NCBI GenBank assembly: GCA_032718475.1
Contig: JAUCBJ010004850.1
Span: 1 to 54,092 of the forward strand
Source: Nemertoderma westbladi
Taxonomy: Eukaryota > Animalia > Xenacoelomorpha
DNA: 54,092 bases
Reading direction: 5' to 3'
Below are positions 1 through 41,300 of the stretch, one piece after another; within the stretch, counting starts at the first letter, position 1; each line of letters opens with the position of its first letter. The translations under genes were made by a program, and so were the position numbers. The notes under the pieces were generated by a model. It was not told the DNA's origin. It saw nothing but the letters and a program-made list of their open reading frames with translations, and made no database searches.

Positions 1-2835
1 ACAATATTCCGGTGAGTAACTGAACAATATTCAGGTGAGTAACTGAACAATATTCCGGGGAGTAACTGAACAATATTCCGGTGAGCAACTGAACAATATT
101 CCGGTTAGTAACTGAACAATATTCCGGTGAGTAACTGAACAATATTCAGGTGAGCAACTGAACAATATTCCGGTGAGTAACTGAACAATATTCCTGGGAG
201 TAACTGAACAATATTCCGGTGAGCAACTGAACAATATTCCGGTGAGTAACTGAACAATATTCCGGTGAGTAACTGAACAATATTCCGGTGAGTAACTGAA
301 CAATATTCCGGTGAGCAACTGGACAATATTCCGGTGAGTAACTGAACAATATTCCTGTGAGTAACTGAGCAATATTCCGGTGAGTAACTGAACAATATTC
401 CGGTGAGTAACTGAACAATATTCAGGTGAGCAACTGAACAATATTCCGGTGAGTAACTGAACAATATTCCGGTGAGTAACTGAACAATATTCCGGTGAGA
501 AACTGAACAATATTCCGGTGAGTAACTGAACAATATTCCTGGGAGTAACTGAACAATATTCCGGTGAGTAACTGAACAATATTCCGGTGAGTAACTGAAC
601 AATATTCAGGTGAGCAACTGAACAATATTCCGGTGAGTAACTGAACAATATTCCTGGGAGTAACTGAACAATATTCCGGTGAGCAACTGAACAATATTCC
701 GGTGAGCAACTGAACAATATTCCTGGGAGTAACTGAACAATACTCCGGTGAGTATCTGAACAATATTCCGGTGAGTATCTGAACAATATTCCGGTGAGTA
801 ACTGAACAATATTCCGGTGAGTATCTGAACAATATTCCGGTGAGTAACTGAACAATATTCCGGTGAGTAACTGAACAATATTCCGGTGAGTATCTGAACA
901 ATATTCCGGTGAATAACTGAACAATATTCCGGTGAGCAACTGAACAATATTCCGGTGAGCAACTGAACAATATTCCTGGGAGTAACTGAACAATATTCCT
1001 GGGAGTAACTGAACAATATTCCGGTGAGCAACTGAACAATATTCCGGTGAGCAACTGAACAATATTCCTGGGAGTAACTGAACAATATTCCGGTGAGTAA
1101 CTGAACAATATTCCGGTGAGTATCTGAACAATATTCCGGTGAGTAACTGAACAATATTCCGGTGAGTAACTGAACAATATTCCGGTGAGCAACTGAACAA
1201 TATTCCGGTGAGCAACTGAACAATATTCCTGGGAGTAACTGAACAATATTCCGGTGAGTAACTGAACAATATTCCGGTGAGTATCTGAACAATATTCCGG
1301 TGAGCAACTGAACAATATTCCGGTGAGCAACTGAACAATATTCCTGGGAGTAACTGAACAATATTCCTGGGAGTAACTGAACAATATTCCTGGGAGTAAC
1401 TGAACAATATTCCGGTGAGCAACTGAACAATATTCCGGTGAGCAACTGAACAATATTCCTGGGAGTAACTGAACAATATTCCTGGGAGTAACTGAACAAT
1501 ATTCCGGTGAGCAACTGAACAATATTCCGGTGAGCAACTGAACAATATTCCTGGGAGTAACTGAACAATATTCCGGTGAGTAACTGAACAATATTCCGGT
1601 GAGTATCTGAACAATATTCCGGTGAGCAACTGAACAATATTCCGGTGAGCAACTGAACAATATTCCTGGGAGTAACTGAACAATATTCCTGGGAGTAACT
1701 GAACAATATTCCGGTGAGCAACTGAACAATATTCGGTGAGCAACTGAACAATATTCCTGGGAGTAACTGAACAATATTCCGGTGAGTAACTGAACAATAT
1801 TCCGGTGAGTAACTGAACAATATTCCGGTGAGCAACTGAACAATATTCCGGTGAGCAACTGAACAATATTCCTGGGAGTAACTGAACAATATTCCTGGGA
1901 GTAACTGAACAATATTCCTGGGAGTAACTGAACAATATTCCGGTGAGCAACTGAACAATATTCCGGTGAGCAACTGAACAATATTCCTGGGAGTAACTGA
2001 ACAATATTCCTGGGAGTAACTGAACAATATTCCGGTGAGCAACTGAACAATATTCCGGTGAGCAACTGAACAATATTCCTGGGAGTAACTGAACAATATT
2101 CCGGTGAGTAACTGAACAATATTCCGGTGAGTATCTGAACAATATTCCGGTGAGCAACTGAACAATATTCCGGTGAGCAACTGAACAATATTCCTGGGAG
2201 TAACTGAACAATATTCCTGGGAGTAACTGAACAATATTCCGGTGAGCAACTGAACAATATTCCGGTGAGCAACTGAACAATATTCCTGGGAGTAACTGAA
2301 CAATATTCCGGTGAGTAACTGAACAATATTCCGGTGAGTAACTGAACAATATTCCGGTGAGTATCTGAACAATATTCCGGTGAATAACTGAACAATATTC
2401 CGGTGAGCAACTGAACAATATTCCGGTGAGCAACTGAACAATATTCCTGGGAGTAACTGAACAATACTCCGGTGAGTATCTGAACAATATTCCGGTGAGT
2501 AACTGAACAATATTCCGGTGAGTAACTGAACAATATTCCGGTGAGTAACTGAACAATATTCCGGTGTGTAACTGAATAATATTCCGGTGAGTAACTGAAC
2601 AATATTCCGGTGTGTAACTGAATAATATTCCGGTGAGTAACTGAACAATATTCCAGTGAGTAACTGAACAATATTCCGGTGTGTAGCTGAATAATATTCC
2701 GGTGACTAACTGAACAATATTCCGGTGAGCAACTGAACAATATTCCGGTGAGTAACTGAACAATATTCCGGTGAGCAACTGAACAATATTCCGGTGAGTA
2801 ACTGAACAATATTCCGGTGAGTAACTGAACAATAT
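1..2835 (+). repeat. 23-bp tandem satellite (ACAATATTCCG|GTGAGTAACTGA), about 123 copies, truncated by the window edge
   Basis: Periodicity read directly. Variants include cctgggagt, gtgagcaac and gagtatctg. The array ends about 50 nt before the homeobox-exon acceptor. Confidence 0.98.
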
Positions 2836-2886
2836 CTCGCTCAAGTGATGCGTAAAAACATTTATACGTTTCTTTCGTTATTTTAG

Positions 2887-3113
2887 ATCACGGAGATTCG
2901 ATTAAGGACTCCAGAACCACACGGTTACCACGGTTACGGACAGTTCTAACGGATAACCAATTGGAAACGTTGCGAAACTGTTTCAAATCGAACCCGCGAC
3001 TCGACGCGTCGCTTAGGGAGAAGCTGATATCGCACACCGGGTTGAGCAGCAAAGTGATACGGGTTTGGTTCCAGAATAAAAGATGCAAAGAAAAGAAAAA
3101 ACGTCTACTCGGG
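2887..3113 (+). CDS. Divergent Islet paralogue, homeobox exon (not called in the ORF track; upstream exons lie outside the window)
   Basis: Acceptor ttattttag|, peptide (D)[75 protein letters not shown], donor GGG|GTAAGG. It has the same phase-1 and phase-0 borders as Islet exon 5 and 36/60 homeodomain identity by hand count. Confidence 0.92.
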
Positions 3114-3490
3114 GTAAGGAAATAAAGTAACGCTATCGTAAGGAAATATAGCAAATATATCATTAAGGAAGTAAAGTAAAGATATAGTTGAGGAAATAAA
3201 GTTAAGTTATAGGTGAGGAAATATTGTAAAGTCAATTGGTAAGGAAATATAGTAAAGATATCTGTAAGGAAATAAAGTAAAGATATCGGTAAGGAAATAA
3301 AGTAAAGATATCTGTAAGGAAATAAAGTATAAATATAGGTGAGGAAATGAAGTAAAGTCGTGGGTAAGAAAATAAAGTTATCGGATAGGAAATAAAGTAA
3401 AGCTATCGGTAAGGAAATAAAGTAAAGCTATCGGTAAGGAAATAAAGTAATGTCATCAATGAGGAAGAGTGTAGTTATATGTGAGGAAAT
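3113..3490 (+). repeat. Degenerate ~25-bp minisatellite (GGTAAGGAAATAAAGTAAAGCTATC), about 15 copies
   Basis: Recurring gtaaggaaataaagtaa motif that begins at the homeobox-exon donor. Confidence 0.85.
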
Positions 3491-4473
3491 AACTTAATGT
3501 TAATGGTAATAAAATGTAATATTCATTGGTGAAATAGAATATTGTTATCGGTGAACATGAAAAACGAAACGCTGGATGAAACCAAAAAGCTCATCTCTCT
3601 TGGCTATTCCCTGCAAGGAAAGATGTGTCACACTGACTCACAAGGTTGAATACTCCTTCAACTATCCCACCGTAATCATTCCGAAACTAAGACAAATTTC
3701 AGACGAGTAACTTTACGTAGTGTGTATAAAAAAATTTTGTTAATGATAATATATAATATTATTCAATAAAAATTATTATTTATTATAATAATATAGTTAG
3801 TTTGTAATGAAATAATCTAACTAGTTATACATTAGGTGCTGATTAAAAAATATGCCAATCAATTTTTAACAAAATTAAATCGGAATAAATTAGTTGAATT
3901 CGCATGCCGACTTGGGTTTTACTTGTGGTGTTGTGTTTACGGTTGAACAGTCGTCCCGGCTCGAGATTTAACGTTCCACTCTCCGAGTTCCGCTCCAACG
4001 AGCGAATCTTTACGCTTAATGAACCGAATTTCCCTCCTGTTTCCTGGAACTACCGTCTACAGCATTCCGTGCCCCAGGACTGCCGTGAATACAGCAGGGT
4101 TGGGGGGGGGGGGGGGGGGGGGGGGTAACATTGGCTTAAACATAGAGATGGACGGAAGCATATACTATAGTTACTATCGGAGTTGTTGTGAACCAACTTT
4201 ATGCGGTTTTTGGATCTCTGGAAGATGCATTCGGGTTATCCCTAAAATGATCCAAATTTAATGGATCCAAAGTCAGTTACTTGGGGTTGAACCAGCGTTG
4301 TACAGAACTGCCTATCCTTAAACAACAGCGCGCAAGTTCATAATAATATGATGGAGGTGGGGGTGGGGGGGGGGGGGGGGTGGGTCCCGACTTAATTAGT
4401 AGTTGCCGCAAATACGCCGACCCTTGTGTATTTTAATAATTATTTATAATAAGAATTTTTTGATTTTCTGCAG

Positions 4474-4662
4474 CCTTTGCTTCCAAACGGAATTGGTATA
4501 ACAACCTCAAGTTCTGCACACCGGAAACAATATCCCCATGACAACCACAATGAAGGACAGTCCAATCAAATAGGACATTCTTGGGGTCAACCATTGTTAT
4601 CCAACAAATGGAATGAAAGCTGGAAGAAAAATAGTTCATTCAATGGAAATACTAACCTGAAT
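4474..4662 (+). CDS. Islet paralogue, exon homologous to the LBD exon (189 nt)
   Basis: Acceptor ttttctgcag|, donor AAT|GTAAGG, phase 0/0. GIGITTSSSAHRKQYPHDNHNEGQSNQ aligns without gaps to Islet [27 protein letters not shown] (9/27 identical), and the length is close (189 vs 186 nt). Confidence 0.75.
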
Positions 4663-5216
4663 GTAAGGCTCGCCCCATTCTTTATCGCCTTTTATCAAAG
4701 AATTATATTCTATTGGAATCGATTTATTTATATATCAAAGTATCATTATGAATAAATGATATATTAGCGATTCAATAATTTACATAGCCAATTAGCTTTA
4801 GTATATAAGAATAGCTTCTCACACCGCTGGGTGTTAAACATTCCTAATGAATTCAATCTCTTCAGATCGGAGTCCGATAGTCGGCCGTGCGGAAATTAAA
4901 ACTATTAATTTCTTAAATAAATATCCCAATCCAAGAATCGCTGATATCCTGTCTCCGCTAATTGCACTATCAGGATAGCTGTGTGTGTATAGTGTAGCGG
5001 CATACAGCTACCTGTACTATTCAATGTATTTCCGAGATTCATCTTTATCTAATTCGCTTAAGGATTCGATTAAAACCTAAGGTATTTGACTCAGGCAGAT
5101 AGAACATTATATCGAACAACTATATTGAAAGTTGGATGCAAATGTGACCCGGTCCTAAGATAGTATTTGACATGAGTAAAAGTCCAGGTCGGCAGCTACA
5201 AACCAAACCAATAAAT

Positions 5217-8200
5217 ATAAGATATGCTGCTGTAGCTTTAATTCTTTATAAGATATGCTGCTGTAGCTTTATGTCTTTATAAGATATGCTGCTGTAGCTT
5301 TCTGTCTTTATAAGATATGCTGCTGTAGCTTTCTGTCTTTATAAGATATGCTGCTGTGGCTTTCTGTCTTTATAAGATATGCTGCTGTAGCTTTCTGTCT
5401 TTATAAGATATGCTGCTGTAGCTTTATGACTTTATAAGATATGCTGCTGTGGCTTTCTGTCTTTATAAGATATGCTGCTGTAGCTTTATGTCTTTATAAG
5501 ATATGCTGCTGTAGCTTTCTGTCTTTATAAGATATGCTGCTGTAGCTTTCTGTCTTTATAAGATATGCTGCTGTAGCTTTCTGTCTTTATAAGATATGCT
5601 GCTGTAGCTTTCTGTCTTTATAAGATATGCTGCTGTAGCTTTCTGTCTTTATAAGATATGCTGCTGTAGCTTTAATTCTTTATAAGATATGCTGCTGTAG
5701 CTTTCTGTCTTTATAAGATATGCTGCTGTAGCTTTCTGTCTTTATAAGATATGCTGCTGTAGCTTTCTGTCTTTATAAGATATGCTGCTGTAGCTTTCTG
5801 TCTTTATAAGATATGCTGCTGTAGCTTTCTGTCTTTATAAGATATGCTGCTGTAGCTTTCTGTCTTTATAAGATATGCTGCTGTAGCTTTCTGTCTTTAT
5901 AAGATATGCTGCTGTAGCTTTCTGTCTTTATAAGATATGCTGCTGTAGCTTTCTGTCTTTATAAGATATGCTGCTGTAGCTTTCTGTCTTTATAAGATAT
6001 GCTGCTGTAGCTTTCTGTCTTTATAAGATATGCTGCTGTAGCTTTCTGTCTTTATAAGATATGCTGCTGTAGCTTTCTGTCTTTATAAGATATGCTGCTG
6101 TAGCTTTCTGTCTTTATAAGATATGCTGCTGTAGCTTTCTGTCTTTATAAGATATGCTGCTGTAGCTTTAATTCTTTATAAGATATGCTGCTGTAGCTTT
6201 CTGTCTTTATAAGATATGCTGCTGTAGCTTTCTGTCTTTATAAGATATGCTGCTGTAGCTTTCTGTCTTTATAAGATATGCTGCTGTAGCTTTCTGTCTT
6301 TATAAGATATGCTGCTGTAGCTTTCTGTCTTTATAAGATATGCTGCTGTAGCTTTCTGTCTTTATAAGATATGCTGCTGTAGCTTTCTGTCTTTATAAGA
6401 TATGCTGCTGTAGCTTTATGTCTTTATAAGATATGCTGCTGTAGCTTTCTGTCTTTATAAGATATGCTGCTGTAGCTTTCTGTCTTTATAAGATATGCTG
6501 CTGTAGCTTTCTGTCTTTATAAGATATGCTGCTGTAGCTTTCTGTCTTTATAAGATATGCTGCTGTAGCTTTCTGTCTTTATAAGATATGCTGCTGTAGC
6601 TTTCTGTCTTTATAAGATATGCTGCTGTAGCTTTCTGTCTTTATAAGATATGCTGCTGTAGCTTTCTGTCTTTATAAGATATGCTGCTGTAGCTTTCTGT
6701 CTTTATAAGATATGCTGCTGTAGCTTTCTGTCTTTATAAGATATGCTGCTGTAGCTTTCTGTCTTTATAAGATATGCTGCTGTAGCTTTCTGTCTTTATA
6801 AGATATGCTGCTGTAGCTTTCTGTCTTTATAAGATATGCTGCTGTAGCTTTCTGTCTTTATAAGATATGCTGCTGTAGCTTTCTGTCTTTATAAGATATG
6901 CTGCTGTAGCTTTCTGTCTTTATAAGATATGCTGCTGTAGCTTTCTGTCTTTATAAGATATGCTGCTGTAGCTTTATGTCTTTATAAGATATGCTGCTGT
7001 AGCTTTCTGTCTTTATAAGATATGCTGCTGTAGCTTTATGTCTTTATAAGATATGCTGCTGTAGCTTTATGTCTTTATAAGATATGCTGCTGTAGCTTTC
7101 TGTCTTTATAAGATATGCTGCTGTAGCTTTCTGTCTTTATAAGATATGCTGCTGTAGCTTTATGTCTTTATAAGATATGCTGCTGTAGCTTTCTGTCTTT
7201 ATAAGATATGCTGCTGTAGCTTTATGTCTTTATAAGATATGCTGCTGTAGCTTTATGTCTTTATAAGATATGCTGCTGTGGCTTTCTGTCTTTATAAGAT
7301 ATGCTGCTGTAGCTTTCTGTCTTTATAAGATATGCTGCTGTAGCTTTCTGTCTTTATAAGATATGCTGCTGTAGCTTTATGTCTTTATAAGATATGCTGC
7401 TGTAGCTTTATGTCTTTATAAGATATGCTGCTGTAGCTTTCTGTCTTTATAAGATATGCTGCTGTAGCTTTATGTCTTTATAAGATATGCTGCTGTAGCT
7501 TTCTGTCTTTATAAGATATGCTGCTGTAGCTTTCTGTCTTTATAAGATATGCTGCTGTAGCTTTATGTCTTTATAAGATATGCTGCTGTAGCTTTATGTC
7601 TTTATAAGATATGCTGCTGTAGCTTTCTGTCTTTATAAGATATGCTGCTGTAGCTTTCTGTCTTTATAAGATATGCTGCTGTAGCTTTATGTCTTTATAA
7701 GATATGCTGCTGTAGCTTTCTGTCTTTATAAGATATGCTGCTGTAGCTTTCTGTCTTTATAAGATATGCTGCTGTAGCTTTCTGTCTTTATAAGATATGC
7801 TGCTGTAGCTTTCTGTCTTTATAAGATATGCTGCTGTAGCTTTATGTCTTTATAAGATATGCTGCTGTAGCTTTCTGTCTTTATAAGATATGCTGCTGTA
7901 GCTTTATGTCTTTATAAGATATGCTGCTGTAGCTTTCTGTCTTTATAAGATATGCTGCTGTAGCTTTCTGTCTTTATAAGATATGCTGCTGTAGCTTTCT
8001 GTCTTTATAAGATATGCTGCTGTAGCTTTCTGTCTTTATAAGATATGCTGCTGTAGCTTTATGTCTTTATAAGATATGCTGCTGTGGCTTTCTGTCTTTA
8101 TAAGATATGCTGCTGTAGCTTTCTGTCTTTATAAGATATGCTGCTGTAGCTTTCTGTCTTTATAAGATATGCTGCTGTAGCTTTCTGACTTTATAAGATA

Positions 8201-16192: not shown

Positions 16193-16519
16193 TCCTTCAG
16201 GAACTTTTATTCTTTTTAACTCACTTTACACCCCCCCCCCCCCCCCCCCCACCCCCACATGTTATTTTCGTAATTCATAGTATTTAATATTAGTTTAGAA
16301 TTTGTGTGCTTTCATTGAGGCGAAACTTTGTTAATCAAATTACTTGGTTTTCATGTAATCGAATGATTTCAACATATAAATTATTCCGTCTTAGTTATAA
16401 TATTCCGTTATAGTTATGGAGACTTACTGTATCAATAATTACTATTATACGATAAACTTAATATAATATTAATTAATTCAATTGATAATTGATTTAACGT
16501 GAATTCTCCTTTTTTTTAG

Positions 16520-16621
16520 GTTTACGAAACAAAATTTGAGATTTGCAACAAATTTGTAAAGAAGACCCCACAGACCCCACATAGAAGACTCCCAATGCCA
16601 CAGTTGATATGGAATCACTGA
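16520..16621 (+). CDS. Candidate terminal exon of the Islet paralogue (VYETKFEICNKFVKKTPQTPHRRLPMPQLIWNH*)
   Basis: Strong acceptor ttctccttttttttag|, 33 open codons in phase 0, and AATAAA at 16708-16713. Competing acceptors end at 4865 and 16200. Confidence 0.45.
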   Translation, partial: VYETKFEICNKFVKKTPQTPHRRLPMPQLIWNH

Positions 16622-20687: not shown

Positions 20688-21826
20688 CAATTGTGGTTCC
20701 GCTGTTTTATGTTTGGATGGTTTTAGTGATAATTACTTAAAAACATCTTACACAACAAAACCTAAAGCGATGCCACAAAATAATATGAATATTTAATCAT
20801 CTTGAATGATTTTTGATTATCATGCGAAATGATAATGTTGACGTGACTTTCAATGACAAATTTTCCCATAAAGATAAATCGATTTCTCATCAATAATATT
20901 TAGGGTAAATAAATACTTAGGAAAAAAATTCTAAATGATTTTATCTCAAAGATACTTTATTTTAACGGATATAATAATAAACTAGAACTTAACAACTAAA
21001 ACTAAAACTTTATGTAATTCTATATAATCACACCTAGGTATAACGTAATATAATGTACTGCAATTATAAAAAAAAACCCTCATAAAAATATTGCTACTGT
21101 ATAAAATAGTACACAACGCACCAATATCGATAACTTGACTTCACAATACCAAATAATTACAGAAATATTAAAGTAAACAAATAAGGTACTAGAACAGTGA
21201 AATTTCGATAATACCAAAAAACGACACAAAATCAGAATTATTAGTCATAATTTCGCCAAGTTAGTCAGGCGGTCGGACAGTGTGACAGTCCGTTCGATGT
21301 TACTTTCGGACTTTTAGGTCCTGAAGTGAATGCACTGGATATCATTAAAATGACGTGTATAATTTATTAAATAGTCTTCTAGTAATTTGATATAAATATA
21401 CAAAATGAATTTTATCAAGAACTCGAACAAATATAGTCGATACAATTAAACGAATAACTTTGTTAAACAATAATAAAACCGTAGCAGAGTGAACCAATGA
21501 AACTCAATATAAACCGACTGGGTTCAACGAACTAAATAGATGGTATAATAATATCGAGTTTAGGTTAGAATTTCCGAGAATTTCGTTACAATATCTCCGC
21601 TAGATCGAACTGTATTACGGTAAGTTAGGCTTATGTATTCGATGCGTTTCATATTTAAATTCTTCTTATTCAACACCGACATTATTAGTGACCGTAAAGC
21701 AATAAGGGACTAGCTATACTGTCTCCGTTAGAGGAAATGTCAGAAAGTGGAGAGGACGACAATTGCGTGTCATAAACCTAAAAATAATAATAAATAATAT
21801 AATTATATAATATATACCCAGGATAT

Positions 21827-23149: not shown

Positions 23150-23263
23150 CTCTGCGCAACATTTTGAGTTTCGCATTTATTATTTATCAATTTAGTTGGT
23201 CAATATATAATTATAAATGTTTAGTAGCTAGTTGCTGATTAAAGTCAACCGCGAGTGTGGTTA

Positions 23264-23383
23264 TTACAAGAGCGTAGCGAGTGGAAACTCGTACGAAGTG
23301 GCAGAGTTTTTGAGATAGGATGGGAAGGAAAGTTTATTAGTAACGAGATCGGTGTCAGCCATATGTTGCCACAAAACTGTTAC
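23264..23383 (-). CDS. Isl: Probable Islet terminal exon ([39 protein letters not shown])
   Basis: Acceptor tattacaatag| is followed by 39 open codons in phase 0 and lies exactly at the end of the 46-bp array. There is no homology support, and alternative acceptors exist 7 nt further on and near 25755. Confidence 0.45.
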   Translation of the reverse strand, partial: VTVLWQHMADTDLVTNKLSFPSYLKNSATSYEFPLATLL

Positions 23384-26300
23384 CTATTGTAATAATAGTT
23401 CTAGAACATTTGTGTTCAGTAACATGCGTTTACCTATTGTAATAGTAGTTCTAGAACATTTGTGTTCAGTAACTGCTACCTATTGTAATAATAGTTCTAG
23501 AACATTTGTGTTCAGTAACTGCTACCTATTGTAATAGTAGTTCTAGAACATTTGTGTTCAGTAACTGCTACCTATTGTAATAGTAGTTCTAGAACATTTG
23601 TGTTCAGTAACTGCTACCTATTGTAATAGTAGTTCAGGAACATTTCTGTTCAGTAACTGCTACCTATTGTAATAATAGTTCTAGAACATTTGTGTTCAGT
23701 AACTGCTACCTATTGTAATAATAGTTCTAGAACATTTGTGTTCAGTAACTGCTACCTATTGTAATAATAGTTATAGAACATTTGTGTTCAGTAACTGCTA
23801 CCTATTGTAATAGTAGTTCAGGAACATTTGTGTTCAGTAACTGCTACCTTTTGTAATAGTAGTTCTAGAACATTTGTATTCAGTAACTGCTACCTATTGT
23901 AATAGTAGTTCTAGAACATTTGTGTTCAGTAACTGCTACCTATTGTAATAATAGTTCTAGAACATTTGTGTTCAGTAACTGCTACCTATTGTAATAATAG
24001 TTCTAGAACATTTGTGTTCAGTAACTGCTACCTATTGTAATAGTAGTTCTAGAACATTTGTGTTCAGTAACTGCTACCTATTGTAACAGTAGTTCAGGAA
24101 CATTTGTGTTCAGTAACTGCTACCTATTGTAATAATAGTAGTTCTAGAACATTTGTGTTCAGTAACTGCTACCTATTGTAATAGAAGTAGTTCTAGAACA
24201 TTTGTGTTCAGTAACTGCTACCTTTTGTAATAGTAGTTCTAGAACATTTGTGTTCAGTAACTGCTACCTATTGTAATAATAGTTCTAGAACATTTGTGTT
24301 CAGTAACTGCTACCTATTGTAATAGTAGTTCAGGAACATTTGTGTTCAGTAACTGCTACCTATTGTAATAGTAGTTCTAGAACATTTGTGTTCAGTAACT
24401 GCTACCTATTGTAATAATAGTTCTAGAACATTTGTGTTCAGTAACTGCTACCTATTGTAATAATAGTTCTAGAACATTTGTGTTCAGTAACTGCTACCTA
24501 TTGTAATAATAGTTCTAGAACATTTGTGTTCAGTAACTGCTACCTATTGTAATAATAGTTCTAGAACATTTGTGTTCAGTAACTGCTACCTATTGTAATA
24601 ATAGTTCTAGAACATTTGTGTTCAGTAACTGCTACCTATTGTAATAATAGTTCTAGAACATTTGTGTTCAGTAACTGCTACCTATTGTAATAATAGTTCT
24701 AGAACATTTGTGTTCAGTAACTGCTACCTATTGTAATAATAGTTCTAGAACATTTGTGTTCAGTAACTGCTACCTATTGTAATAGTAGTTCTAGAACATT
24801 TGTGTTCAGTAACTGCTACCTATTGTAACAGTAGTTCAGGAACATTTGTGTTCAGTAACTGCTACCTATTGTAATAATAGTTCTAGAACATTTGTGTTCA
24901 GTAACTGCTACCTATTGTAATAGTAGTTCTAGAACATTTGTGTTCAGTAACTGCTACCTATTGTAATAGTAGTTCAGGAACATTTGTGTTCAGTAACTGC
25001 TACCTTTTGTAATAGTAGTTCTAGAACATTTGTGTTCAGTAACTGCTACCTATTGTAATAATAGTTCTAGAACATTTGTGTTCAGTAACTGCTACCTATT
25101 GTAATAATAGTTCTAGAACATTTGTGTTCAGTAACTGCTACCTATTGTAATAGTAGTTCTAGAACATTTGTGTTCAGTAACTGCTACCTTTTGTAATAGT
25201 AGTTCTAGAACATTTGTGTTCAGTAACTGCTACCTATTGTAATAGTAGTTATAGAACATTTGTGTTCAGTAACATGCGTTTACCTATTGTAATAGTAGTT
25301 CTAGAACATTTGTGTTCAGTAACTGCTACCTATTGTAATAGTAGTTCTAGAACATTTGTGTTCAGTAACATGCGTTATTTCTATGTTAGTGACGCGGCAT
25401 AATTTTGACACGGCATAATTACTCTAGTAAAGTCAGAGAGTGATAAAAACAGTTACATTTAATCACGCTCGAACATATAAATAAGGCTTTACAAGAAGTT
25501 GTTAACAATATAATATACTATGGATACAGGAGCAATCTCAATCTGGCTGGACTATACAATACAATGAATTATGTACAATGCGTTGAATAGCAAACCATTT
25601 ACAGCTGTTTCTGCCAATAAGCCAACCTAAGTAAACCTTTCTTAAAAAAACAGATGGATTGAAATTTCCCTTTTCTACTGGTATTAACTCTACACTTGTT
25701 GCCTCTGGCGATCTACCATCAGTATTACTTTTGTACAATAGAAACCATCCAAATCTGTTACATATAATATAAAGTCGCCATTAAAAGTTGTCATTAACTC
25801 AATTAAAATGTTGCAACAGGTTGGCTGTACAATATGTGCTTTTATTGTGCAGTATATACAATGTGTTTGGTGTCTACAACTAAGTATATAGTATGGTATC
25901 TTATTTATACCCGCAGCCCAAGTTATTGGCAGGTACATCGACAATCCAAAATAAACATGAGAAACAGCTGAGTTATAGGCAATCAAAATATTGCAAGAAT
26001 ATATCGTTAGCTGAAGGCCATTTATTCTATTTAATAAATACACGATGTTCTAGAACGTATTATTTATCACATGACACGGTGTGCTAGAATGGTATGCGCA
26101 TACAATAACTCTATTCATACATAAACAAAATGTTCCAGAACGTTGAGTATTTATTAAATAGAATAAAATGGCCTACAGCCTACTTTTGTGTTTCAAATTT
26201 AAATGATGAATGATGATGACTGGGCTGGGGGGGGGGGGGTATCAATACTAAATGACACTACATTACGGGCCATGGTTTCTATAATTTCTGAAGCTATAAT

Positions 26301-29300
26301 ATTAAAACCCACCATGTAATCGGAATGTAGATCTCCTTTGGACATCGAATTCGATATTGACATATAACTATTGTCGTCAACCGGTCCCCCGTGACTCCAT
26401 AAGGGCTGGAAGGACTGAACCTCTACCTGGTTGCCATGGAGATTGGCGTCCTGTCGGACGGGACTCGAGGCTACCATGGCAACACCCGTCATTGAATGCT
26501 GAAGAAATTTAAACAATAAAAGTTATAAAGGAACTTTTTGAAAGAAAACATACTGACCGAAACGTTTAACTCTATAATAAAGGTTTTAAACAGGAAACCT
26601 GAGATTCTTCCGTTCTCAAATACGGATATATTACTGGAGTCGCAGTACCGAGCAGAGAGGGTGCGTTCAGCCGAGCGTAACGATGCCCAACGGTGCGCGA
26701 ATACGAGCACAGATGTACGCGGGTAACAGGTCACCCAATCCGATATATTATCAGCTCGTAATCCGTCTAGAGTTGCCGTTATTAACTGCCGTCCAAATCG
26801 CCGAGGTATTTAGATGCGAAATGGGAGGAGAGCTTTTGTGCCGTAAAAGGAAGATAAGGCGAGAATGTTGGGTTGTAAGGGCCCTGCACTGAGTAATTAG
26901 TGTTGGGTTATCAGCTCCGTGAGGGGTTGAGGCCACCCAACATTCCTATGCGGTTGCAATGAATCCATCTGTATGTCTCTATTGCATAACAGCCGCAGTT
27001 AATCGCACAAAGTTAGTTTATTAATTTAAATTCTACGGTTAATATCCGAGAGACAAGTTGCATTCAGTCGTCACAAAATATCAAAGCGTCAAGGTGGGAT
27101 CGAACCAGTTACTTAGAGTTTGTAAAACTATAAAACTCATAGCAAAAGCTCTGGAGGAAGTGTTTATTGTTGAAGATCAAACATATTGTGGTGAGGAGCG
27201 AGCAGCAATCACTGGATAAATAATGCTAAAGATTTTCCCATTCATGTTAAACACTAAACAAAACCCACGCGGAGGTGATTTCAAGTCTATGCAGTTCCAG
27301 TTATAGGTTATTTAACGGGACACCAACCTGTTTGCCTTGCAGCTCCATCTGCGATTTGATATGCATACTCCGTTTCTTATCCTTGCAGCGCTTGTTCTGG
27401 AACCAGACTCGGATAACCCGGCCACTCAGTCCCGTCATGTCCGACAACTGTTCCCGCATCAACGCGTCGGGCCGCGCGTTGGCCGCGTAACAGGTGCGGA
27501 GCGTAGAGAGTTGTTTCTCGTTGAGTACCGTTCGCACTCGGGTGGGTTTGTGGTCCGAGGACGGAGAGGATTTAGTGCTGCCATGGGAACGCGATTGTAA
27601 AGTAACCGATTGGTCTGCGAAAGTTAATGAGAGGCTAATTAATTAATGAGAAGACAATTAATTAATGAAATACAATAATATTTAAAGAAAATAAAATTTG
27701 GTTGAATTTCACAAACATATAAACTCCCACAAACGTTTTTATTATAATCAAGATCTTTCTGGAGTAACCGTTCTCGCCTTCCCTTCCCACATTACAATAA
27801 GTCCTACTTTATGAATCATTTTAAATTAAAAAGATTGCTCATGTGCTAACACTTGATGAGCACATGATGAGCTTTAGAATAGGTTGGTTGTTATCGCGCC
27901 GCCGGTAACGGTGTACATCGACATTCATTCTACAGGGTGATGCTCGGTTTTACTAGTTAGTAGCAACCTATACAATGATTCAGGACAGTAGTAGATGTTC
28001 ATTTCTAGTGGATAATTCTGATGTGGAATAATCAAACTTCAATAAACCATCATAACGGATTTACTATACCAAATATACAAAGGTCACTAATAATGTAGAT
28101 CTACTATAATAGATTCATATTAAACAAGTATGATGATAATAATATAACAATGATGGTAATTGATATCAAATAACGTAGTTAATTAGCTGATAATAGACCG
28201 ATTTGGTGTATCTTTGATTATCAAACATCTAACAAATAAACCCGTATTTAATCCGTCCCAGTCATTATCTCTTATATTTGTCTGTAACTTTATAAAGAGA
28301 TCACCTTCTCTACGTTTATATACCGGTAAATAAAGTCCGATATAGCTGATAAACAACGCGTATTATTCCCGTGTATACAACGCGGCCAAACATCCGTATA
28401 CGCTACGCCCCTAATATTTGCTGGAGATTATCAGGTGTGACCGAATCTTACGACAATGTTGGTTGGGAGTAAACAATTCAATGTTTACAGTAATGTAAAC
28501 CGGAATAAACCCACGCACAGTGAACTAGACTTATCTGATTGTTGTTAAACAACGTATAATATATTCATATAATGGCGTAAAGACAGTTTAATGAGTTGCA
28601 TTAAACTATTTGCAATGGATGCGATGGTGTGAAGAGGTGTGTGATAGTAGTTGCTATGCATATTTTAGCAAAATGACGGTATTATTGTAAAATAAGAGTG
28701 TATGGAAGTGCTTATGTATTACAATGCTAAGCTTAAACAAAATGTTAATTCCGAAAATTACATATACAGAAAAAAATCTCATTAATTTTTTTACAAAACA
28801 CATAAAAATTTTTTTATCATTTTATTTTTGTATGTAAATAAGAATTTTTATAAAAATAAACAACCCAGATAACAACATTATTTATTGATAAAATAAAACT
28901 AACCGGACTGCATTGCACTAGTTTTTGTGTTGTTGTTGTTATTGTTGTTATTATTTGTAAACTCTACAAGCTCAGCTCTCTCTATAACCTGATTATCTTC
29001 CTCACAATAGATTCCATCATCTCGAACTACAAATTTGTCACCTAAAAAAATGAAAAATAAATTATTTATTAATTAAACAAACGGACAGTAAGATTGTAAA
29101 GAATAACCAAACCCTCATGTATAAATTTAGGGTTTTCAATATAAAGTTGTTACCTATATGATGCTATATAAAGTTTGTGTTTATTACAAGAATAAAAACA
29201 GAACAAAACCAAAAACTGTATGTATTCTTGGGTTGTTTATTGCTTTGGTTATATCAGTTTTCCGGCCATTATAGCTAGCACTTTCCCTTTTCAGCACTCA

Positions 29301-32300: not shown

Positions 32301-35300
32301 CTGTAATTAACTGCACACTGCAAGTAGAACATCTGAAACAATCGACGTGGTAAATCTTACTCCCTCCTCTTGTCTTCATTACCAAATCGGTTTTATTGAA
32401 TCCCAATCCACATTTGGCGCACTTCGACCCAAATAATCTGAAACAATCAACCCGAATCATTTGAGTTGATCCATCAAGGTGAATCCGTTTGTCGCTTAAA
32501 TGGATAGATAAATCTACTCGGGGGGGGGGGGGGGGGGCAATTAGGGAGGGAATCTAACCTCCTTGGAGGGACAGGAAAGAGTCGCAAATTACTGGGGAAT
32601 TTATATTCGGAATAAATTGGTAGTCAAACAGGGAGAGGTTTGTCTGTTAAAGGCTTTAACAGGAAAACCTCACTCCAAGGACGAGTTAGAGGCACTCCCT
32701 CACCTCACATGAGATGATTAATAAACCAGATTATTTTAAGATTATAATTGAATGTCTTCGGGTCGTTTTTATATAAACGTGATGTAGAAATAATATATTC
32801 ATTCTGACACAACGTAGTAACGTAGATATTCAGTCGTAAGTTTTACAAAGAAAAGGAGCCATTTAGGTACGGTAGGTTATGATGCTGTTAATTGGTTTAG
32901 TTAGCAAACATAATTGGCTTGATAGACATTGAACAGTCGATATGGTAAAGGATTTCCTCGCAAATTAAACAAAACTAAAATACATATCTCCACAAGAACC
33001 TCGGTATCATTCATCATTGCCCCCAGTTCTAAGGGACAGACAAAAGAGGCGGAGTGGGCTTAAATGTTACAGTACGAGTCAAAAAAAAGTCGAATAATGG
33101 TCTCAGATAGAGTCCAGATGAAGAAACCTAACCCTGTCAGGGTGGGTCAAATTATTACGTGTCCCGGTTGCAGAAATGTTTCCGTTAAACTGGTGGGGCA
33201 GCCGGACAATGACGAATTCAACTAAACCGCAGTTCTATGGCTGCATATACCGCAAAGGGGCAAACCTAATGTCCTGCAAGTCCCTTCACGGCATCACCAC
33301 TCAGTAAAGCTTCGTTAAACTCTACTGGAAACGCTAATTATGGAGGACCAAACAGTTTACAATTACAATTCACCCAGATATATCCCATGTACCAATTTAT
33401 ATTCGTACACTCATATACATGGCCCACATATACTGATAATCTCAATACGCAACGCCACAAAACTCGGGTCAAAATTAATGATAGAAAATAAATGTTTAGC
33501 CGAAAATATATAAAAAATAAAAGTCAGACCAGTTTACAAAAACGCATTTCTTTGAAAAAAAAATTGCTAACATATATATGCACACGATAATGAAAATTAA
33601 AGAAAATTGAAGAGACCAACCTTGTGTAATCCCGTCTACTCACCTTGTGTAATCCCGTCTACTCACCTTGTGTAATCCCGTCTACTCACCTTGTGTAATC
33701 CCGTCTACCCACCTTGTGTAATCCCGTCTACCCACCTTGTGTAATCCCGTCTACCCACCTTGTGTAATCCCGTCTACCCACCTTGTGTAATCCCGTCTAC
33801 CCACCTTGTGTAATCCCGCTCACCAACCTTGTGTAATCCCGTCTACCCACCTTGTGTAATCCCGTCTACCCACCTTGTGTAATCCCGTCTACCAACCTTG
33901 TGTAATCCCGTCTACCCACCTTGTGTAATCCCGTCTACCCACCTTGTGTAATCCCGTCTACCCACCTTGTGTAATCCCGCTCACCAACCTTGTGTAATCC
34001 CGTCTACCCACCTTGTGTAATCCCGTCTACCCACCTTGTGTAATCCCGTCTACCCACCTTGTGTAATCCCGTCTACCCACCTTGTGTAATCCCGTCTACC
34101 CACCTTGTGTAATCCCGCTCACCAACCTTGTGTAATCCCGTCTACCCACCTTGTGTAATCCCGTCTACCCACCTTGTGTAATCCCGTCTACCAACCTTGT
34201 GTAATCCCGTCTACCCACCTTGTGTAATCCCGTCTACCCACCTTGTGTAATCCCGTCTACCCACCTTGTGTAATCCCGCTCACCAACCTTGTGTAATCCC
34301 GTCTACCCACCTTGTGTAATCCCGTCTACCCACCTTGTGTAATCCCGTCTACCCACCTTGTGTAATCCCGTCTACCAACCTTGTGTAATCCCGTCTACCC
34401 ACCTTGTGTAATCCCGTCTACCCACCTTGTGTAATCCCGTCTACCCACCTTGTGTAATCCCGCTCACCAACCTTGTGTAATCCCGTCTACCCACCTTGTG
34501 TAATCCCGTCTACCCACCTTGTGTAATCCCGTCTACCCACCTTGTGTAATCCCGTCTACCCACCTTGTGTAATCCCGTCTACCCACCTTGTGTAATCCCG
34601 CTCACCAACCTTGTGTAATCCCGTCTACCCACCTTGTGTAATCCCGTCTACCCACCTTGTGTAATCCCGTCTACCAACCTTGTGTAATCCCGTCTACCCA
34701 CCTTGTGTAATCCCGTCTACCCACCTTGTGTAATCCCGTCTACCCACCTTGTGTAATCCCGCTCACCAACCTTGTGTAATCCCGTCTACCCACCTTGTGT
34801 AATCCCGTCTACCCACCTTGTGTAATCCCGTCTACCAACCTTGTGTAATCCCGTCTACCCACCTTGTGTAATCCCGTCTACCAACCTTGTGTAATTCCGT
34901 CTTCCAACCTTGTGTAATCCCGTCTACCAACCTTGTGTAATCCCGTCTACCCACCTTGTGTAATCCCGTCTACCCACCTTGTGTAATCCCGCTCACCAAC
35001 CTTGTGTAATCCCGTCTACCCACCTTGTGTAATCCCGTCTACCCACCGTGTGTAATCCCGTCTACCCACCTTGTGTAATCCCGTCTACCCACCTTGTGTA
35101 ATCCCGTCTACCCACCTTGTGTAATCCCGTCTACCCACCTTGTGTAATCCCGTCTACCCACCTTGTGTAATCCCGCTCACCAACCTTGTGTAATCCCGTC
35201 TACCCACCTTGTGTAATCCCGTCTACCCACCTTGTGTAATCCCGTCTACCCACCTTGTATAATCCCGTCTACCAACCTTGTGTAATCCCGTCCACCCACC

Positions 35301-38300
35301 TTGTGTAATCCCGTCTACCCACCTTGTGTAATCCCGTCTACCCACCTTGTGTAATCCCGCTCACCAACCTTGTGTAATCCCGTCTACCCACCTTGTGTAA
35401 TCCCGTCTACCCACCTTGTGTAATCCCGCTCACCAACCTTGTGTAATCCCGTCTACCCACCTTGTGTAATCCCGTCTACCCACCTTGTGTAATCCCGTCT
35501 ACCCACCTTGTGTAATCCCGTCTACCCACCTTGTGTAATCCCGTCTACCCACCTTGTGTAATCCCGTCTACCCACCTTGTGTAATCCCGTCTACCCACCT
35601 TGTGTAATCCCGCTCACCAACCTTGTGTAATCCCGTCTACCCACCTTGTGTAATCCCGTCTACCCACCTTGTGTAATCCCGTCTACCCACCTTGTGTAAT
35701 CCCGTCTACCCACCTTGTGTAATCCCGTCTACCCACCTTGTGTAATCCCGTCTACCCACCTTGTGTAATCCCGTCTACCCACCTTGTGTAATCCCGCTCT
35801 ACCCACCTTGTGTAATCCCGTCTACCCACCTTGTGTAATCCCGTCTACCCACCTTGTGTAATCCCGTCTACCCACCTTGTGTAATCCCGTCTACCCACCT
35901 TGTGTAATCCCGTCTACCCACCTTGTGTAATCCCGTCTACCCACCTTGTGTAATCCCGTCTACCCACCTTGTGTAATCCCGTCTACCCACCTTGTGTAAT
36001 CCCGTCTACCCACCTTGTGTAATCCCGTCTACCCACCTTGTGTAATCCCGTCTACCCACCTTGTGTAATCCCGTCTACCCACCTTGTGTAATCCCGTCTA
36101 CCCACCTTGTGTAATCCCGTCTACCCACCTTGTGTAATCCCGTCTACCCACCTTGTGTAATCCCGTCTACCCACCTTGTGTAATCCCGTCTACCCACCTT
36201 GTGTAATCCCGCTCACCAACCTTGTGTAATCCCGTCTACCCACCTTGTGTAATCCCGTCTACCCACCTTGTGTAATCCCGTCTACCCACCTTGTGTAATC
36301 CCGTCTACCCACCTTGTGTAATCCCGTCTACCCACCTTGTGTAATCCCGTCTACCCACCTTGTGTAATCCCGTCTACCCACCTTGTGTAATCCCGTCTAC
36401 CCACCTTGTGTAATCCCGTCTACCCACCTTGTGTAATCCCGTCTACCCACCTTGTGTAATCCCGTCTACCAACCTTGTGTAATCCCGTCTACCCACCTTG
36501 TGTAATCCCGTCTACCCACCTTGTGTAATCCCGTCTACCCACCTTGTGTAATCCCGTCTACCCACCTTGTGTAATCCCGCTCTACCAACCTTGTGTAATC
36601 CCGTCTACCCACCTTGTGTAATCCCGTCTACCCACCTTGTGTAATCCCGTCTACCCACCTTGTGTAATCCCGTCTACCCACCTTGTGTAATCCCGTCTAC
36701 CCACCTTGTGTAATCCCGTCTACCCACCTTGTGTAATCCCGTCTACCCACCTTGTGTAATCCCGTCTCACCAACCTTGTGTAATCCCGTCTACCCACCTT
36801 GTGTAATCCCGTCTACCCACCTTGTGTAATCCCGTCTACCCACCTTGTGTAATCCCGTCTACCAACCTTGTGTAATCCCGTCTACCCACCTTGTGTAATC
36901 CCGTCTACCCACCTTGTGTAATCCCGTCTACCAACCTTGTGTAATCCCGTCTACCCACCTTGTGTAATCCCGTCTACCCACCTTGTGTAATCCCGTCTAC
37001 CCACCTTGTGTAATCCCGTCTACCCACCTTGTGTAATCCCGTCTACCCACCTTGTGTAATCCCGTCTACCCACCTTGTGTAATCCCGTCTACCCACCTTG
37101 TGTAATCCCGTCTACCCACCTTGTGTAATCCCGTCTACCCACCTTGTGTAATCCCGTCTACCCACCTTGTGTAATCCCGTCTACCCACCTTGTGTAATCC
37201 CGTCTACCCACCTTGTGTAATCCCGTCTACCCACCTTGTGTAATCCCGTCTACCCACCTTGTGTAATCCCGTCTACCCACCTTGTGTAATCCCGTCTACC
37301 CACCTTGTGTAATCCCGTCTACCCACCTTGTGTAATCCCGTCTACCCACCTTGTGTAATCCCGTCTACCCACCTTGTGTAATCCCGTCTACCCACCTTGT
37401 GTAATCCCGTCTACCCACCTTGTGTAATCCCGTCTACCCACCTTGTGTAATCCCGTCTACCCACCTTGTGTAATCCCGTCTACCCACCTTGTGTAATCCC
37501 GTCTACCCACCTTGTGTAATCCCGTCTACCAACCTTGTGTAATCCCGTCTACCCACCTTGTGTAATCCCGTCTACCCACCTTGTGTAATCCCGTCTACCC
37601 ACCTTGTGTAATCCCGTCTACCAACCTTGTGTAATCCCGTCTACCCACCTTGTGTAATCCCGTCTACCCACCTTGTGTAATCCCGTCTACCCACCTTGTG
37701 TAATCCCGTCTACCCACCTTGTGTAATCCCGTCTACCCACCTTGTGTAATCCCGTCTACCCACCTTGTGTAATCCCGTCTACCCACCTTGTGTAATCCCG
37801 TCTACCCACCTTGTGTAATCCCGTCTACCCACCTTGTGTAATCCCGTCTACCCACCTTGTGTAATCCCGTCTACCCACCTTGTGTAATCCCGTCTACCCA
37901 CCTTGTGTAATCCCGTCTACCCACCTTGTGTAATCCCGTCTACCCACCTTGTGTAATCCCGTCTACCCACCTTGTGTAATCCCGTCTACCCACCTTGTGT
38001 AATCCCGTCTACCAACCTTGTGTAATCCCGTCTACCCACCTTGTGTAATCCCGTCTACCAACCTTGTGTAATCCCGTCTACCCACCTTGTGTAATCCCGT
38101 CTACCCACCTTGTGTAATCCCGTCCACCCACCTTGTGTAATCCCGTCTACCAACCTTGTGTAATCCCGTCTACCAACCTTGTGTAATCCCGTCTACCCAC
38201 CTTGTGTAATCCCGTCTACCCACCTTGTGTAATCCCGTCTACCCACCTTGTGTAATCCCGTCTACCCACCTTGTGTAATCCCGTCTACCCACCTTGTGTA

Positions 38301-41300
38301 ATCCCGTCTACCCACCTTGTGTAATCCCGTCTACCCACCTTGTGTAATCCCGTCTACCAACCTTGTGTAATCCCGTCTACCCACCTTGTGTAATCCCGTC
38401 TACCCACCTTGTGTAATCCCGTCTACCCACCTTGTGTAATCCCGTCTACCCACCTTGTGTAATCCCGTCTACCCACCTTGTGTAATCCCGTCTACCAACC
38501 TTGTGTAATCCCGTCTACCCACCTTGTGTAATCCCGTCTACCCACCTTGTGTAATCCCGTCTACCCACCTTGTGTAATCCCGTCTACCCACCTTGTGTAA
38601 TCCCGTCTACCCACCTTGTGTAATCCCGTCTACCCACCTTGTGTAATCCCGTCTACCCACCTTGTGTAATCCCGTCTACCAACCCACCTTGTGTAATCCC
38701 GTCTACCAACCTTGTGTAATCCCGTCTACCCACCTTGTGTAATCCCGTCTACCCACCTTGTGTAATCCCGTCTACCCACCTTGTGTAATCCCGTCTACCC
38801 ACCTTGTGTAATCCCGTCTACCCACCTTGTGTAATCCCGTCTACCAACCCACCTTGTGTAATCCCGTCTACCACCCACCTTGTGTAATCCCGTCTACCCA
38901 CCTTGTGTAATCCCGTCTACCCACCTTGTGTAATCCCGTCTACCCACCTTGTGTAATCCCGTCTACCCACCTTGTGTAATCCCGTCTACCCACCTTGTGT
39001 AATCCCGTCTACCCACCTTGTGTAATCCCGTCTACCCACCTTGTGTAATCCCGTCTACCCACCTTGTGTAATCCCGTCTACCAACCTTGTGTAATCCCGT
39101 CTACCCACCTTGTGTAATCCCGTCTACCCACCTTGTGTAATCCCGTCTACCCACCTTGTGTAATCCCGTCTACCCACCTTGTGTAATCCCGTCTACCCAC
39201 CTTGTGTAATCCCGTCTACCCACCTTGTGTAATCCCGTTTGCAGTAGGTTTTTCCATCGCGAACGAAACAAGTTATAGATTCATCGAGAAAACATTGACA
39301 TTGGGAACATTTAAGGCAAGTCGAGTGCCATTCAAGGTCGGGTGCGACTCGTAGGACAAACGGGTCTAATATAAGAGACCCACAGCCAACGCAGATCGGT
39401 GCTCGGGTATTACCTAAAATATTCAAATTAATTAATTAATTTAATCAAAATCCGATGCATCATAAAATAGTATTTATTAGTAATAGTAAAAGATAAGTAA
39501 TATTATTTATGTATCATTATAATTAATTTAGAAATCAAGGCGGACGGACATGAGTTTTTTCTATTACTATACTATAATGGCCTGCTGCATTGAAGCTGCA
39601 GTGCTCAACATTGAGATGCTGTGCTGGTTTAATAAAAATGTTTGTTCTACCACCATGTCCCAGCTACAATTATTGGCTTGCTGTGATGCAGCGTGCATTA
39701 AGAATGCTGTGCCGGCTTATCGACAAAATTGCACCGCCACTACTCACTATCCCCCATGACTTTCGCGAGATTATCCGCATCTTCAAGGTCAGTGCCCTTT
39801 AAGAGGCGTCTCTAGAAAGTCATGAGCTGTCCAGGTCCACCATGCTTATTTTCTCCACGAGGACACCTAAGCATCACAGCTGGACCTCACGGCGAAAGCA
39901 ATGTCCTGCAAAGCGGAGGCGGCTTTGTTCTAGTGTCAAGCTTGGGGGAACCAATGAGACACCTACAATGTTATATAGTGCGTCTGGTTGGAGATGTGTG
40001 CATTGTACTTGACACAATGAACCCGGCGTAGCATTCTTGTGAATGTGCCATCCAGAGATTTGGTGTCCTCAGCAGTTAGAGCCCAGCATGGACTCCTATA
40101 TTGGACGGACATGAGACAGGACAAGGCGGAAATCAGACACGACAAGGAGGACATCAGACAGGACAAGGCTGGGGAAGTGTGGCGCCCCACCCCCCCCCCC
40201 CCCCCCCCCCCGCCATACAGATAACTGCCAAGAGAGGGGAGACTTACTTCTGGTTTCCTCCTGTATTTCGTGTTTTAACATTCACCAACAATATTAATTT
40301 ACTTTATTAATTAAGCGGCCCTATATTATTGTAAAATAATTATTGTTTTATGTAAGTGAGAGCTGTTCAAACCATCAGCAAACTGCAATAAATTATACTA
40401 CGGTCGTCTACTAACAGTCTGTGTGTGTTGGGGTCTGTGAGTCTGTGTTCCGAAGTTCTGTATGTTGGGGTCTGTGAGTCTGTGTTCCGAAGTTCTGTAT
40501 GTTGGGGTCTGTGAGTCTGTGTTCCGAAGTTCTGTATGTTGGGGTCTGTGAGTCTGTGTTCCGAAGTTCTGCTACACGACGGTACCAGACATGTGTTGTT
40601 GTCTGGTTTATTGTGAAATAAATTATATTCTGTTAATCCAGATTATTTTGTTTGTTTGTCTAACCACAATCGATAGGGTGTAAAGGGTATAACTGGGCAA
40701 CTGTTTGGTTTATTTCATGTAAATATACGATTATTTATAGATGCAACTCATAGATTATATTGCAGTCTAGACTCAGTCTTAAATCAGCATATCAGCTCAA
40801 AGCACAAAGGATAATTTATCGTCAAATCAAAAATATATAGTTAAAAAAGCCAAAATGAATTCAAAAAAATAAATTGATCGAGTTTCAATTAATTTATATT
40901 TCATGTTGTAACAAGGTGAAAATTACTAACTATACCGTGAAAGTCAGTACCACCAGACATCTGATAGAAAACCGAAGATGGTCATCTCTCCCCCCAGGAC
41001 CATCACAACACATATCAGTGACATACATACTGATAGCAAAGCAAAGCCGATCGTAATAATATGGGAGGAAATCTCTTGTTTTACTTATTCAAGTTAGGAC
41101 TATCTCGGTACTAAGACTTTCATAAATACGACCTCTTAATAAAGATAACAGCATATTATCAACCCTAACTGGCAACCGGGGTATTATACAACGTATAATT
41201 GGTCTGGGGGATTAAACTTATATATAACCCCCATATCTCATTTTAAAATTTTTATATCTTGGCCCAAAAATTACAATTTTGATGATATAAGACTTTTTGA

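Follow-up and report, generated by a model that had tools for sequence, protein, structure and literature searches.

Three tandem arrays in this locus run across functional splice donors in a pair of Islet genes, and we consider them, with a probability of roughly two in three, to be minisatellites of the 'mirage' type that came from tandem duplications straddling a donor and grew by unequal exchange. The window, by which we mean the whole stretch of 54,092 bp that was analysed, is a single locus chosen for its striking appearance, and arrays account for 25,908 of its 54,092 bp (48%). A repeat listing of the window recovered the five arrays of the original prediction at their expected places, and also contained further ones with units of 31 bp, 27 bp (49 copies) and 37 bp (4 copies). 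The principal arrays are as follows.

1-2835, + strand: at least 123 units of 23 bp in gene B intron 4, the upstream edge lying beyond the window
3113-3450, + strand: 14 units of 25 bp, decayed (78% matches), at the gene B exon 5 donor
5216-16192, + strand: 354 units of 31 bp, the largest array, without donor motif
21828-23150, strand undefined: 49 units of 27 bp, without donor motif, used as an internal control
23375-25369, - strand: 43 units of 46 bp, probably past the gene A 3' end
29916-32315, - strand: 57 units of 42 bp at the exon 3 donor
33615-39238, - strand: 244 units of 23 bp at the gene A exon 2 donor

The donor motif was sought on both strands of the 31-bp and 27-bp units and found in neither, the 37-bp unit being outside this scoring.

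Splice junctions were taken from contigs of run X4, which is not recorded as RNA and which we take as such since its contigs omit introns with exact GT-AG boundaries. Runs X5 and X6 contained almost none of the window's sequence words and were left out. Gene A lies on the - strand, and its exon 1 was not located, there being five candidates; the homeodomain exon has best database matches of 66-88%, and a representative-sequence search returned five weak matches; no close relative of the Islet protein emerged, LIM1 matching at 78% at best.

39224..39413, - strand: gene A exon 2 (LIM1), from translation and Islet homology of up to 78%; an X4 contig joins it to exon 3
32301..32437, - strand: exon 3 (LIM2), its 3' end shared by the mRNA contigs of genes A and B
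28904..29041, - strand: gene A exon 4, acceptor junction in X4, donor placed by the open frame and without an array
27328..27614, - strand: gene A exon 5 (homeodomain), from Islet homology, boundaries placed by frame, donor without an array
25448..26498, - strand: gene A exon 6 (C-terminal Islet motif, hits P0123 and P0125), of probable extent

Gene B lies on the + strand, and its exon 6 appears to read through the GT at 4663 to about 5095. Candidates for a last exon, those at 16520 and 23383 among them, were profiled against 40 Islet tails, and every score fell inside the shuffled range.

2887..3113, + strand: gene B exon 5 (divergent Islet homeodomain), both junctions in an X4 contig; it aligns with exon 5A
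4474..5095, + strand: gene B exon 6, acceptor junction in a contig, end suggested by a 622-nt remainder and ATTAAA at 5069
16520..16621, + strand: candidate gene B last exon, with a strong acceptor and a 33-aa ORF

Four arrays had been predicted to abut exon boundaries, and the X4 spliced contigs bear this out for the donors at 39224, 32301 and 3113 and not for the proposed acceptor at 23383. The proposal that each unit consists of exon end plus intron start fits the gene A arrays of 23 and 42 bp, and applies elsewhere to no more than 1-3 nt of exon. The 244-unit array has a unit of 15-17 nt of exon tail and 6-8 nt of intron start, with AAG/GT present 243 times and GT kept in all 244 units. 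The 42-bp unit carries 16 nt of exon, including a 6-nt microhomology, with CAG/GTGAGT present 53 times and GT kept in 57 of 57 units; TGCAGT is repeated at both edges of this array, its far end keeps a trace of an older copy of the exon tail, and its exon-intron junction has been duplicated twice. The 25-bp array, by comparison, has 1-3 nt of exon per unit, with GT kept in 11 of 14, and the array at 1-2835 at most 2-3 nt. The prediction that separate arrays arose in both genes, at different donors and with unequal decay, is upheld by the junctions, by the mean unit identity, which is very uneven across donor arrays (0.88-0.99), and by an incidence above local chance.

The array in gene B intron 4 (1-2835) probably begins outside the window, at the exon 4B donor, with a TCG microhomology. 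The spliced tail of this upstream exon shares only CG with the unit and TCG with the last partial unit, which disagrees with an explanation suggested by the end of gene A exon 4 (TCCG/GT), namely that the array copies a long exon tail. GT is kept in 95 of its 123 units and lost in 28, and variant types gather in the donor core (1.29 versus 0.44 per position), so that its decoys could be not fully neutral; in three of the four arrays no consistent signal was found of decoy GTs being either purged or selectively kept.

The first copy of the donor is the one used at all three array donors in the X4 contigs, from which rare forms would escape, the junctions observed being exon 2-exon 3, exon 3-exon 4A, exon 3-exon 4B and exon 5B-exon 6B. 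The expectation that one true site must be chosen among some 240 near-identical ones is supported, the first being used in the presence of up to 243 copies of AAG/GT. Use of a decoy was tested 15 times (4+4+7) and in every case would truncate the frame with a premature stop; as contigs lose rare variants and decay would mask mis-spliced RNA, use of the first donor may not be exclusive. The donors at 39224, 32301 and 3113 show the features of a mirage minisatellite: a head-to-tail array, a first unit lying across a working donor, repetition of the splice signal and use of the first donor.

That the arrays are artefacts of assembly is scarcely credible. Contigs cannot give the length of an array, and the depth of X1 is uneven (4 versus 22). 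Exon 3 has no contig in X1, which may reflect a filter gap and was given no weight, and copy number was not read from contig depth. Against an artefact, the array edges and the joints between units recur in X2 and X3, a second sample from another study, an X2 contig covers 2806-3165 with zero differences, and the variants among units are structured.

The 46-bp array is a different case, since the proposed acceptor at 23383 is not supported. One gene A contig extends 1051 nt beyond exon 5, and this remainder misfits splicing to 23383 or 23376, an argument from length as the contig holds no such junction; a minor isoform is conceivable. The length of the remainder, together with an ATTAAA at 25463-25458 that lies 10 nt before the end, leads us to infer that exon 6 continues past the GT at 26312 and ends at about 25448, which would probably place the 46-bp array just downstream, some 80 nt beyond the end of the gene A transcript. 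We also considered 25380-25330 as a small exon with the 46-bp array as its donor array, and set it aside since its acceptor has no pyrimidine tract and the remainder length points to read-through.

Arrays likely arise at splice donors beyond chance in this genome. Of the eight arrays that lie wholly inside the window, three straddle a donor, out of five donors present, against 0.047 expected, which gives P(≥3) = 1.1e-5 for donors and 1.5e-4 when all 12 donors and acceptors are counted, both values being post hoc and from one locus. From this excess (3/8 against 0.05) we infer that the birth or growth of arrays is truly biased towards donors. It is rather unlikely that there is no such bias, and that in a minisatellite-rich genome a few arrays simply fall across donors in a window picked for that. 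Arrays do fill 25,908 of the 54,092 bp, five of the eight are not at a supported splice site, and gene B intron 4 would have only some 75 nt of unique sequence, which puts any array in it near a donor. The observed three against 0.047, improbable by either count, speak against this explanation, as do the four unrelated units and the 42-bp junction that was struck twice. The broader claim, that throughout the genome mutation is biased towards seeding satellites at splice donors and 3' ends, is tentative, and we would give it somewhat less than even odds.

Another explanation would be seeding wherever Pol II pauses and processes RNA, both at donors and shortly beyond 3' ends, by way of R-loops or slippage during repair. 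Besides the three or four donor arrays, the 46-bp and 31-bp arrays start some 80 and 120 nt beyond where genes A and B probably end, and the 31-bp array begins directly after an AATAAA. Both 3' ends, however, come solely from contig remainders and the comparison is post hoc, while a poly(A) signal fits by chance at 9-22% of positions and alternative last exons also fit the remainders in 4 of 25 and 4 of 34 cases; we regard this mechanism as improbable.

For the mirage arrays themselves, founding would be by a short tandem duplication of DNA straddling the donor, through slippage, guided in at least some arrays by microhomology (6 nt in the 42-bp array and 3 nt in that at 1-2835). Breakpoints lie at varied distances from the GT, with 1-17 nt of exon included, as expected of DNA duplication but not of reverse splicing. 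Expansion and homogenisation would follow via unequal exchange, as in other minisatellites, and the arrays would be tolerated because the most upstream donor wins, with nonsense-mediated decay clearing mis-spliced RNA. Similar short repeats at the edges of donor-free arrays (GTT, TAT) suggest that the basic machinery is common to both kinds. Selection that tolerates only junction-regenerating duplications, which had been offered as an alternative, cannot by itself lift the rate above neutral, because the same window also has arrays without donors, spanning 11 kb and 1.3 kb.

The arrays might instead be kept for repeated binding of U1 snRNP, either to guard long introns or to aid trans-splicing from exon 3 to exon 4B. 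The 53 copies of CAG/GTGAGT do sit in the intron where the gene A and gene B mRNAs diverge, this sequence is the first 9 nt of a lola pseudo-donor that promotes trans-splicing (PMC4387717), and GT is kept in 57/57 and 244/244 units. In the young arrays, however, the donor core is roughly as variable as the remaining positions (0.14 versus 0.20 and 0.43 versus 0.38 types per position), the remaining donor arrays decay, and a second path out of intron 2 in X1, at 32644, fits a second copy of exon 3. We hold a role in U1 binding to be very improbable.

The same LIM exons occur in gene A and gene B mRNAs, the 3' halves of which lie on opposite strands. A 1016-nt contig contains the end of exon 3 (- strand) together with exon 5B (+ strand), and the depths add up (60+146=206). 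Conversion, inversion and trans-splicing are alternative explanations. The second path in X1 hints at a second copy, and gene B may possess exons 1-3 of its own beyond the edge of the window; in X2 there is one contig, at a depth of 33 compared with 24-30 for single-copy DNA. There is a slim chance that a single LIM 5' half is joined by trans-splicing to a homeodomain half on each strand, and that the 53 U1-binding pseudo-donors of the 42-bp array play the part of the mod(mdg4)/lola element, in which case a splice-donor satellite would have gained a function. The shared LIM exons of opposite-strand Islet halves would matter for the evolution of LIM-homeodomain genes under any explanation.

This arrangement resembles Drosophila mod(mdg4) and lola, which have common 5' exons, alternative 3' exons on both strands and pseudo-donors in the last 5' intron (PMC4387717); it differs in that trans-splicing here is putative and that gene B may have its own exons 1-3.

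The arrays had been thought possibly undescribed, and this does not hold, the type being known as 'mirage' in amphioxus (PMC3087553) and studied in human F7 (PMC1557585). What is new here is scale and density. Amphioxus mirage minisatellites occur in Adh3, the globins BflGb6 and BflGb9, troponin C and PGBD5 (PMC3087553, PMC3902484); copies number 14-244 here against 3 and 6 in BflGb6, the supported cases here are donors only whereas those of amphioxus involve both boundaries, and some units here have just 1-3 nt of exon. Human donor-spanning VNTRs include F7 intron 7 (37 bp, 5-9 units), and pseudo-site counts are 25 for 6-16, 15-20 for CBS intron 13, 10-15 for LMNB2 and 16-18 for PDGF (PMC1557585). 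As here, the donor lies inside the first unit and the most upstream site is used, and the F7 site, UGG/gugggu, shares its GTGGGT intron start with the 244-unit array. The present arrays have about ten times more copies, with three or four at one locus against one per gene; 6-16 and CBS also use two pseudo-sites, of which none was seen here, where contigs could miss them. The 244-copy array is a natural stress test of first-donor choice, some ten times beyond the human cases.

Microhomology-mediated tandem duplication has been proposed as an origin of tandem repeats (PMC13167724), and the 42-, 46- and 31-bp arrays, with probably that at 1-2835, agree with this model in having short direct repeats at their edges, whereas the 244-unit and 27-bp arrays have no visible edge microhomology; the abstract of that paper reports no splice-site bias, and a term search of the paper gave 0 hits for intron or exon. 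Intron gain via tandem repeats at exon-intron boundaries (PMC2812944; the model is also in PMC3087553) likewise involves splice signals carried at exon borders. The suggested link to the AGGT model of intron gain survives only as a potential, as existing introns have merely been lengthened: the X4 spliced contigs join old exons directly, with no new intron or exon from the duplicated sites. We found no genome-wide test of array birth at splice sites against chance in the literature searched, subscription papers being mostly outside the search. The origin of donor-spanning minisatellites is called unclear in PMC3087553, and the presence of three or four such arrays in one locus, beside donor-free controls, makes a genome-wide test easy.

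Two convergent Islet-class LIM-homeodomain gene segments, here called gene A and gene B, lie in the window, and nine tandem arrays occupy 25,908 bp, or 48%, of it. Exons 2–6 of gene A form one joint open frame of 349 residues, the best matches of which are Islet proteins.

Exons of genes A and B
39413–39224, minus strand, gene A exon 2, part of the joint open frame
32437–32301, minus strand, gene A exon 3, part of the joint open frame
29041–28904, minus strand, gene A exon 4, part of the joint open frame
27614–27328, minus strand, gene A exon 5, part of the joint open frame
from 26498, minus strand, gene A exon 6, part of the joint open frame
2887–3113, plus strand, gene B exon 5, homeodomain strongly diverged
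from 4474, plus strand, gene B exon 6

Long runs of G or C are frequent in the AT-rich background (4100–4125, 4362–4380, 16231–16250, 26227–26240, 32520–32538, 40187–40210 and 42116–42160), and an ATTGC-based compound repeat lies upstream of gene A exon 2 (44576–44841).

The arrays are real. Sequencing runs X2 and X3 share a single sample, which belongs to a study distinct from that of run X1 (possibly the source of the window), and their contigs contain the edges of the 42-bp array and of both 23-bp arrays together with unit-to-unit joints, although contigs cannot give full array lengths. A single X2 contig spans 2806–3165 with zero differences from the window. The original prediction, that five arrays each arose at a splice site, is supported in part: three begin at donors (39224, 32301 and 3113) and the array at 1–2835 probably does, but the placing of the 46-bp array at a probable acceptor at 23383 is unsupported. 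It also overlooked the 31-bp (354 units), 27-bp and 37-bp arrays; when scored, the 31-bp and 27-bp units proved to lack the donor motif.

The upstream exon of the array at 1–2835 lies outside the window, and its spliced tail has just CG in common with the repeat unit. Like the exon tail, the final, partial unit terminates in TCG, placed exactly 23 nt beyond GT; this fits a duplication beginning at that outside donor, the probable origin of this array. Beyond the 25-bp array at 3113, more heavily decayed similar units seem by eye to run on past the called end (3450–3560).

With arrays collapsed to one unit, three of the eight with both ends inside the window straddle one of the five donors (expected 0.047, P=1.1e-5), in a post hoc test at a single chosen locus; counting all 12 donors and acceptors gives P=1.5e-4. 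None of the seven supported acceptors carries an array, too few to show donor/acceptor asymmetry. Neighbouring arrays that lack donors are tolerated too, and selective tolerance therefore cannot raise the rate above neutral; what remains is a bias toward donors in the birth or growth of arrays, or else luck in the drawing of this window.

Breakpoints lie 1–17 nt into the exon and differ for each array, which suggests DNA duplication rather than reverse splicing. TGCAGT occurs at both edges of the 42-bp array, and the survival at its far end of an older exon-tail copy with a single mismatch means that this junction underwent duplication twice. Edge repeats of 3 nt flank the 46-bp and 31-bp arrays; in the 244-unit (23-bp) and 27-bp arrays none is seen. 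Such edge repeats match microhomology-mediated tandem duplication as set out in part of PMC13167724. Mean unit identity runs from 0.99 down to 0.88. In three arrays donor cores vary about as much as other unit positions; in that at 1–2835, GT is lost in 28 of 123 units and variants are concentrated in the donor core.

Run X4 is labelled 'DNA?' and was treated as a transcriptome, because its contigs skip introns exactly at GT–AG. Of these contigs, one carries the end of exon 2 spliced to exon 3, two depart from exon 3 at 32301 and one connects 3113 with 4474, so that the first donor copy is used in 3/3 cases, among contigs that lose rare forms. The gene A 23-bp array holds 243 copies of AAG|GT, the 42-bp array 53 of CAG|GTGAGT and the 25-bp array eight of G|GTRAG, the true donor included. 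Splicing from any of the 15 downstream copies examined would create a premature stop, and mis-spliced RNA would therefore be degraded; use of the first donor is thus seen, its exclusivity not proven. In the 244-unit array the working first copy is GTGGGT, and the three far-end units (33615–33690) have the stronger donor GTGAGT, the last one GTTGGT; array turnover may have rewritten the working donor.

In the single gene A contig 1051 nt remain after exon 5, in agreement with read-through of exon 6 to about 25448, a point 10 nt beyond an ATTAAA. This length misfits a splice to 23383 or to 23376: the transcript would then either stop at a total of about 845 nt or extend ~640 nt into the 27-bp array. 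Gene B, with 622 nt remaining, would similarly read through to about 5095, 21 nt after ATTAAA. For these ends, a poly(A)-type signal fits by chance at 9–22% of positions, and the lengths would equally suit 4/25 and 4/34 alternative last exons. Past these inferred ends come the two large donor-free arrays, the 31-bp array after about 120 nt (5069–5240), directly behind AATAAA at 5210–5215, and the 46-bp array after about 80 nt (25369–25463). An in-register GT closes exon 6 of each gene, and 16520 is a strong acceptor for gene B; other tissues may therefore splice on to a last exon. In a profile comparison with 40 Islet tails, every last-exon candidate scored inside the range of shuffled sequences. 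With its 33-residue ORF and AATAAA, 16520–16713 resembles a gene B last exon behind the 11-kb (31-bp) array; the nucleotides remaining in the X4 contig misfit its use.

Exons 4–6 of the two genes are old paralogues on opposite strands. A 1016-nt X4 contig (depth 145.7) nevertheless joins the end of exon 3, on gene A's strand, to a 138-nt exon 4 absent from the window and to gene B exon 5, and a 550-nt contig with exons 2–3 has depth 206, the sum of the gene A contig (60) and this one (146). Both mRNAs thus seem to have the same LIM exons 2–3. We favour, at a probability of about 0.6 in our judgement, a converted or recently duplicated 5′ half belonging to gene B; in X1 a second contig path leaves intron 2 at 32644 (32594–32644) into sequence absent from the window, and this path may represent a different allele or a further copy of the gene. 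Less probably, one gene has two 3′ halves, with the B part inverted in this haplotype or assembly, as a dispersed inverted repeat at 19.2–20.7 kb might allow. Inverted element copies flank gene A (19247–19787 and 52835–53378, 96% identical; 20005–20687 and 51937–52619, 98.7%) and are likely a mobile element. We consider least probable trans-splicing of the mod(mdg4) and lola type, which according to part of PMC4387717 is driven by a U1-binding intronic pseudo-donor; the 42-bp array does lie in exactly the intron where it would act.

Our literature searches on the topic found no genome-wide enrichment test of such arrays. Their type is already known: minisatellites of 5–25 copies with a donor-spanning first unit, in which the most upstream site is chosen, are described for human F7, 6-16, CBS, LMNB2 and PDGF in part of PMC1557585, and comparable amphioxus repeats, termed 'mirages', leave splicing undisturbed and have an unclear origin in the portions consulted of PMC3087553 and PMC3902484. 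Against these precedents, what is new here is density and size, the arrays being unusually dense and large.
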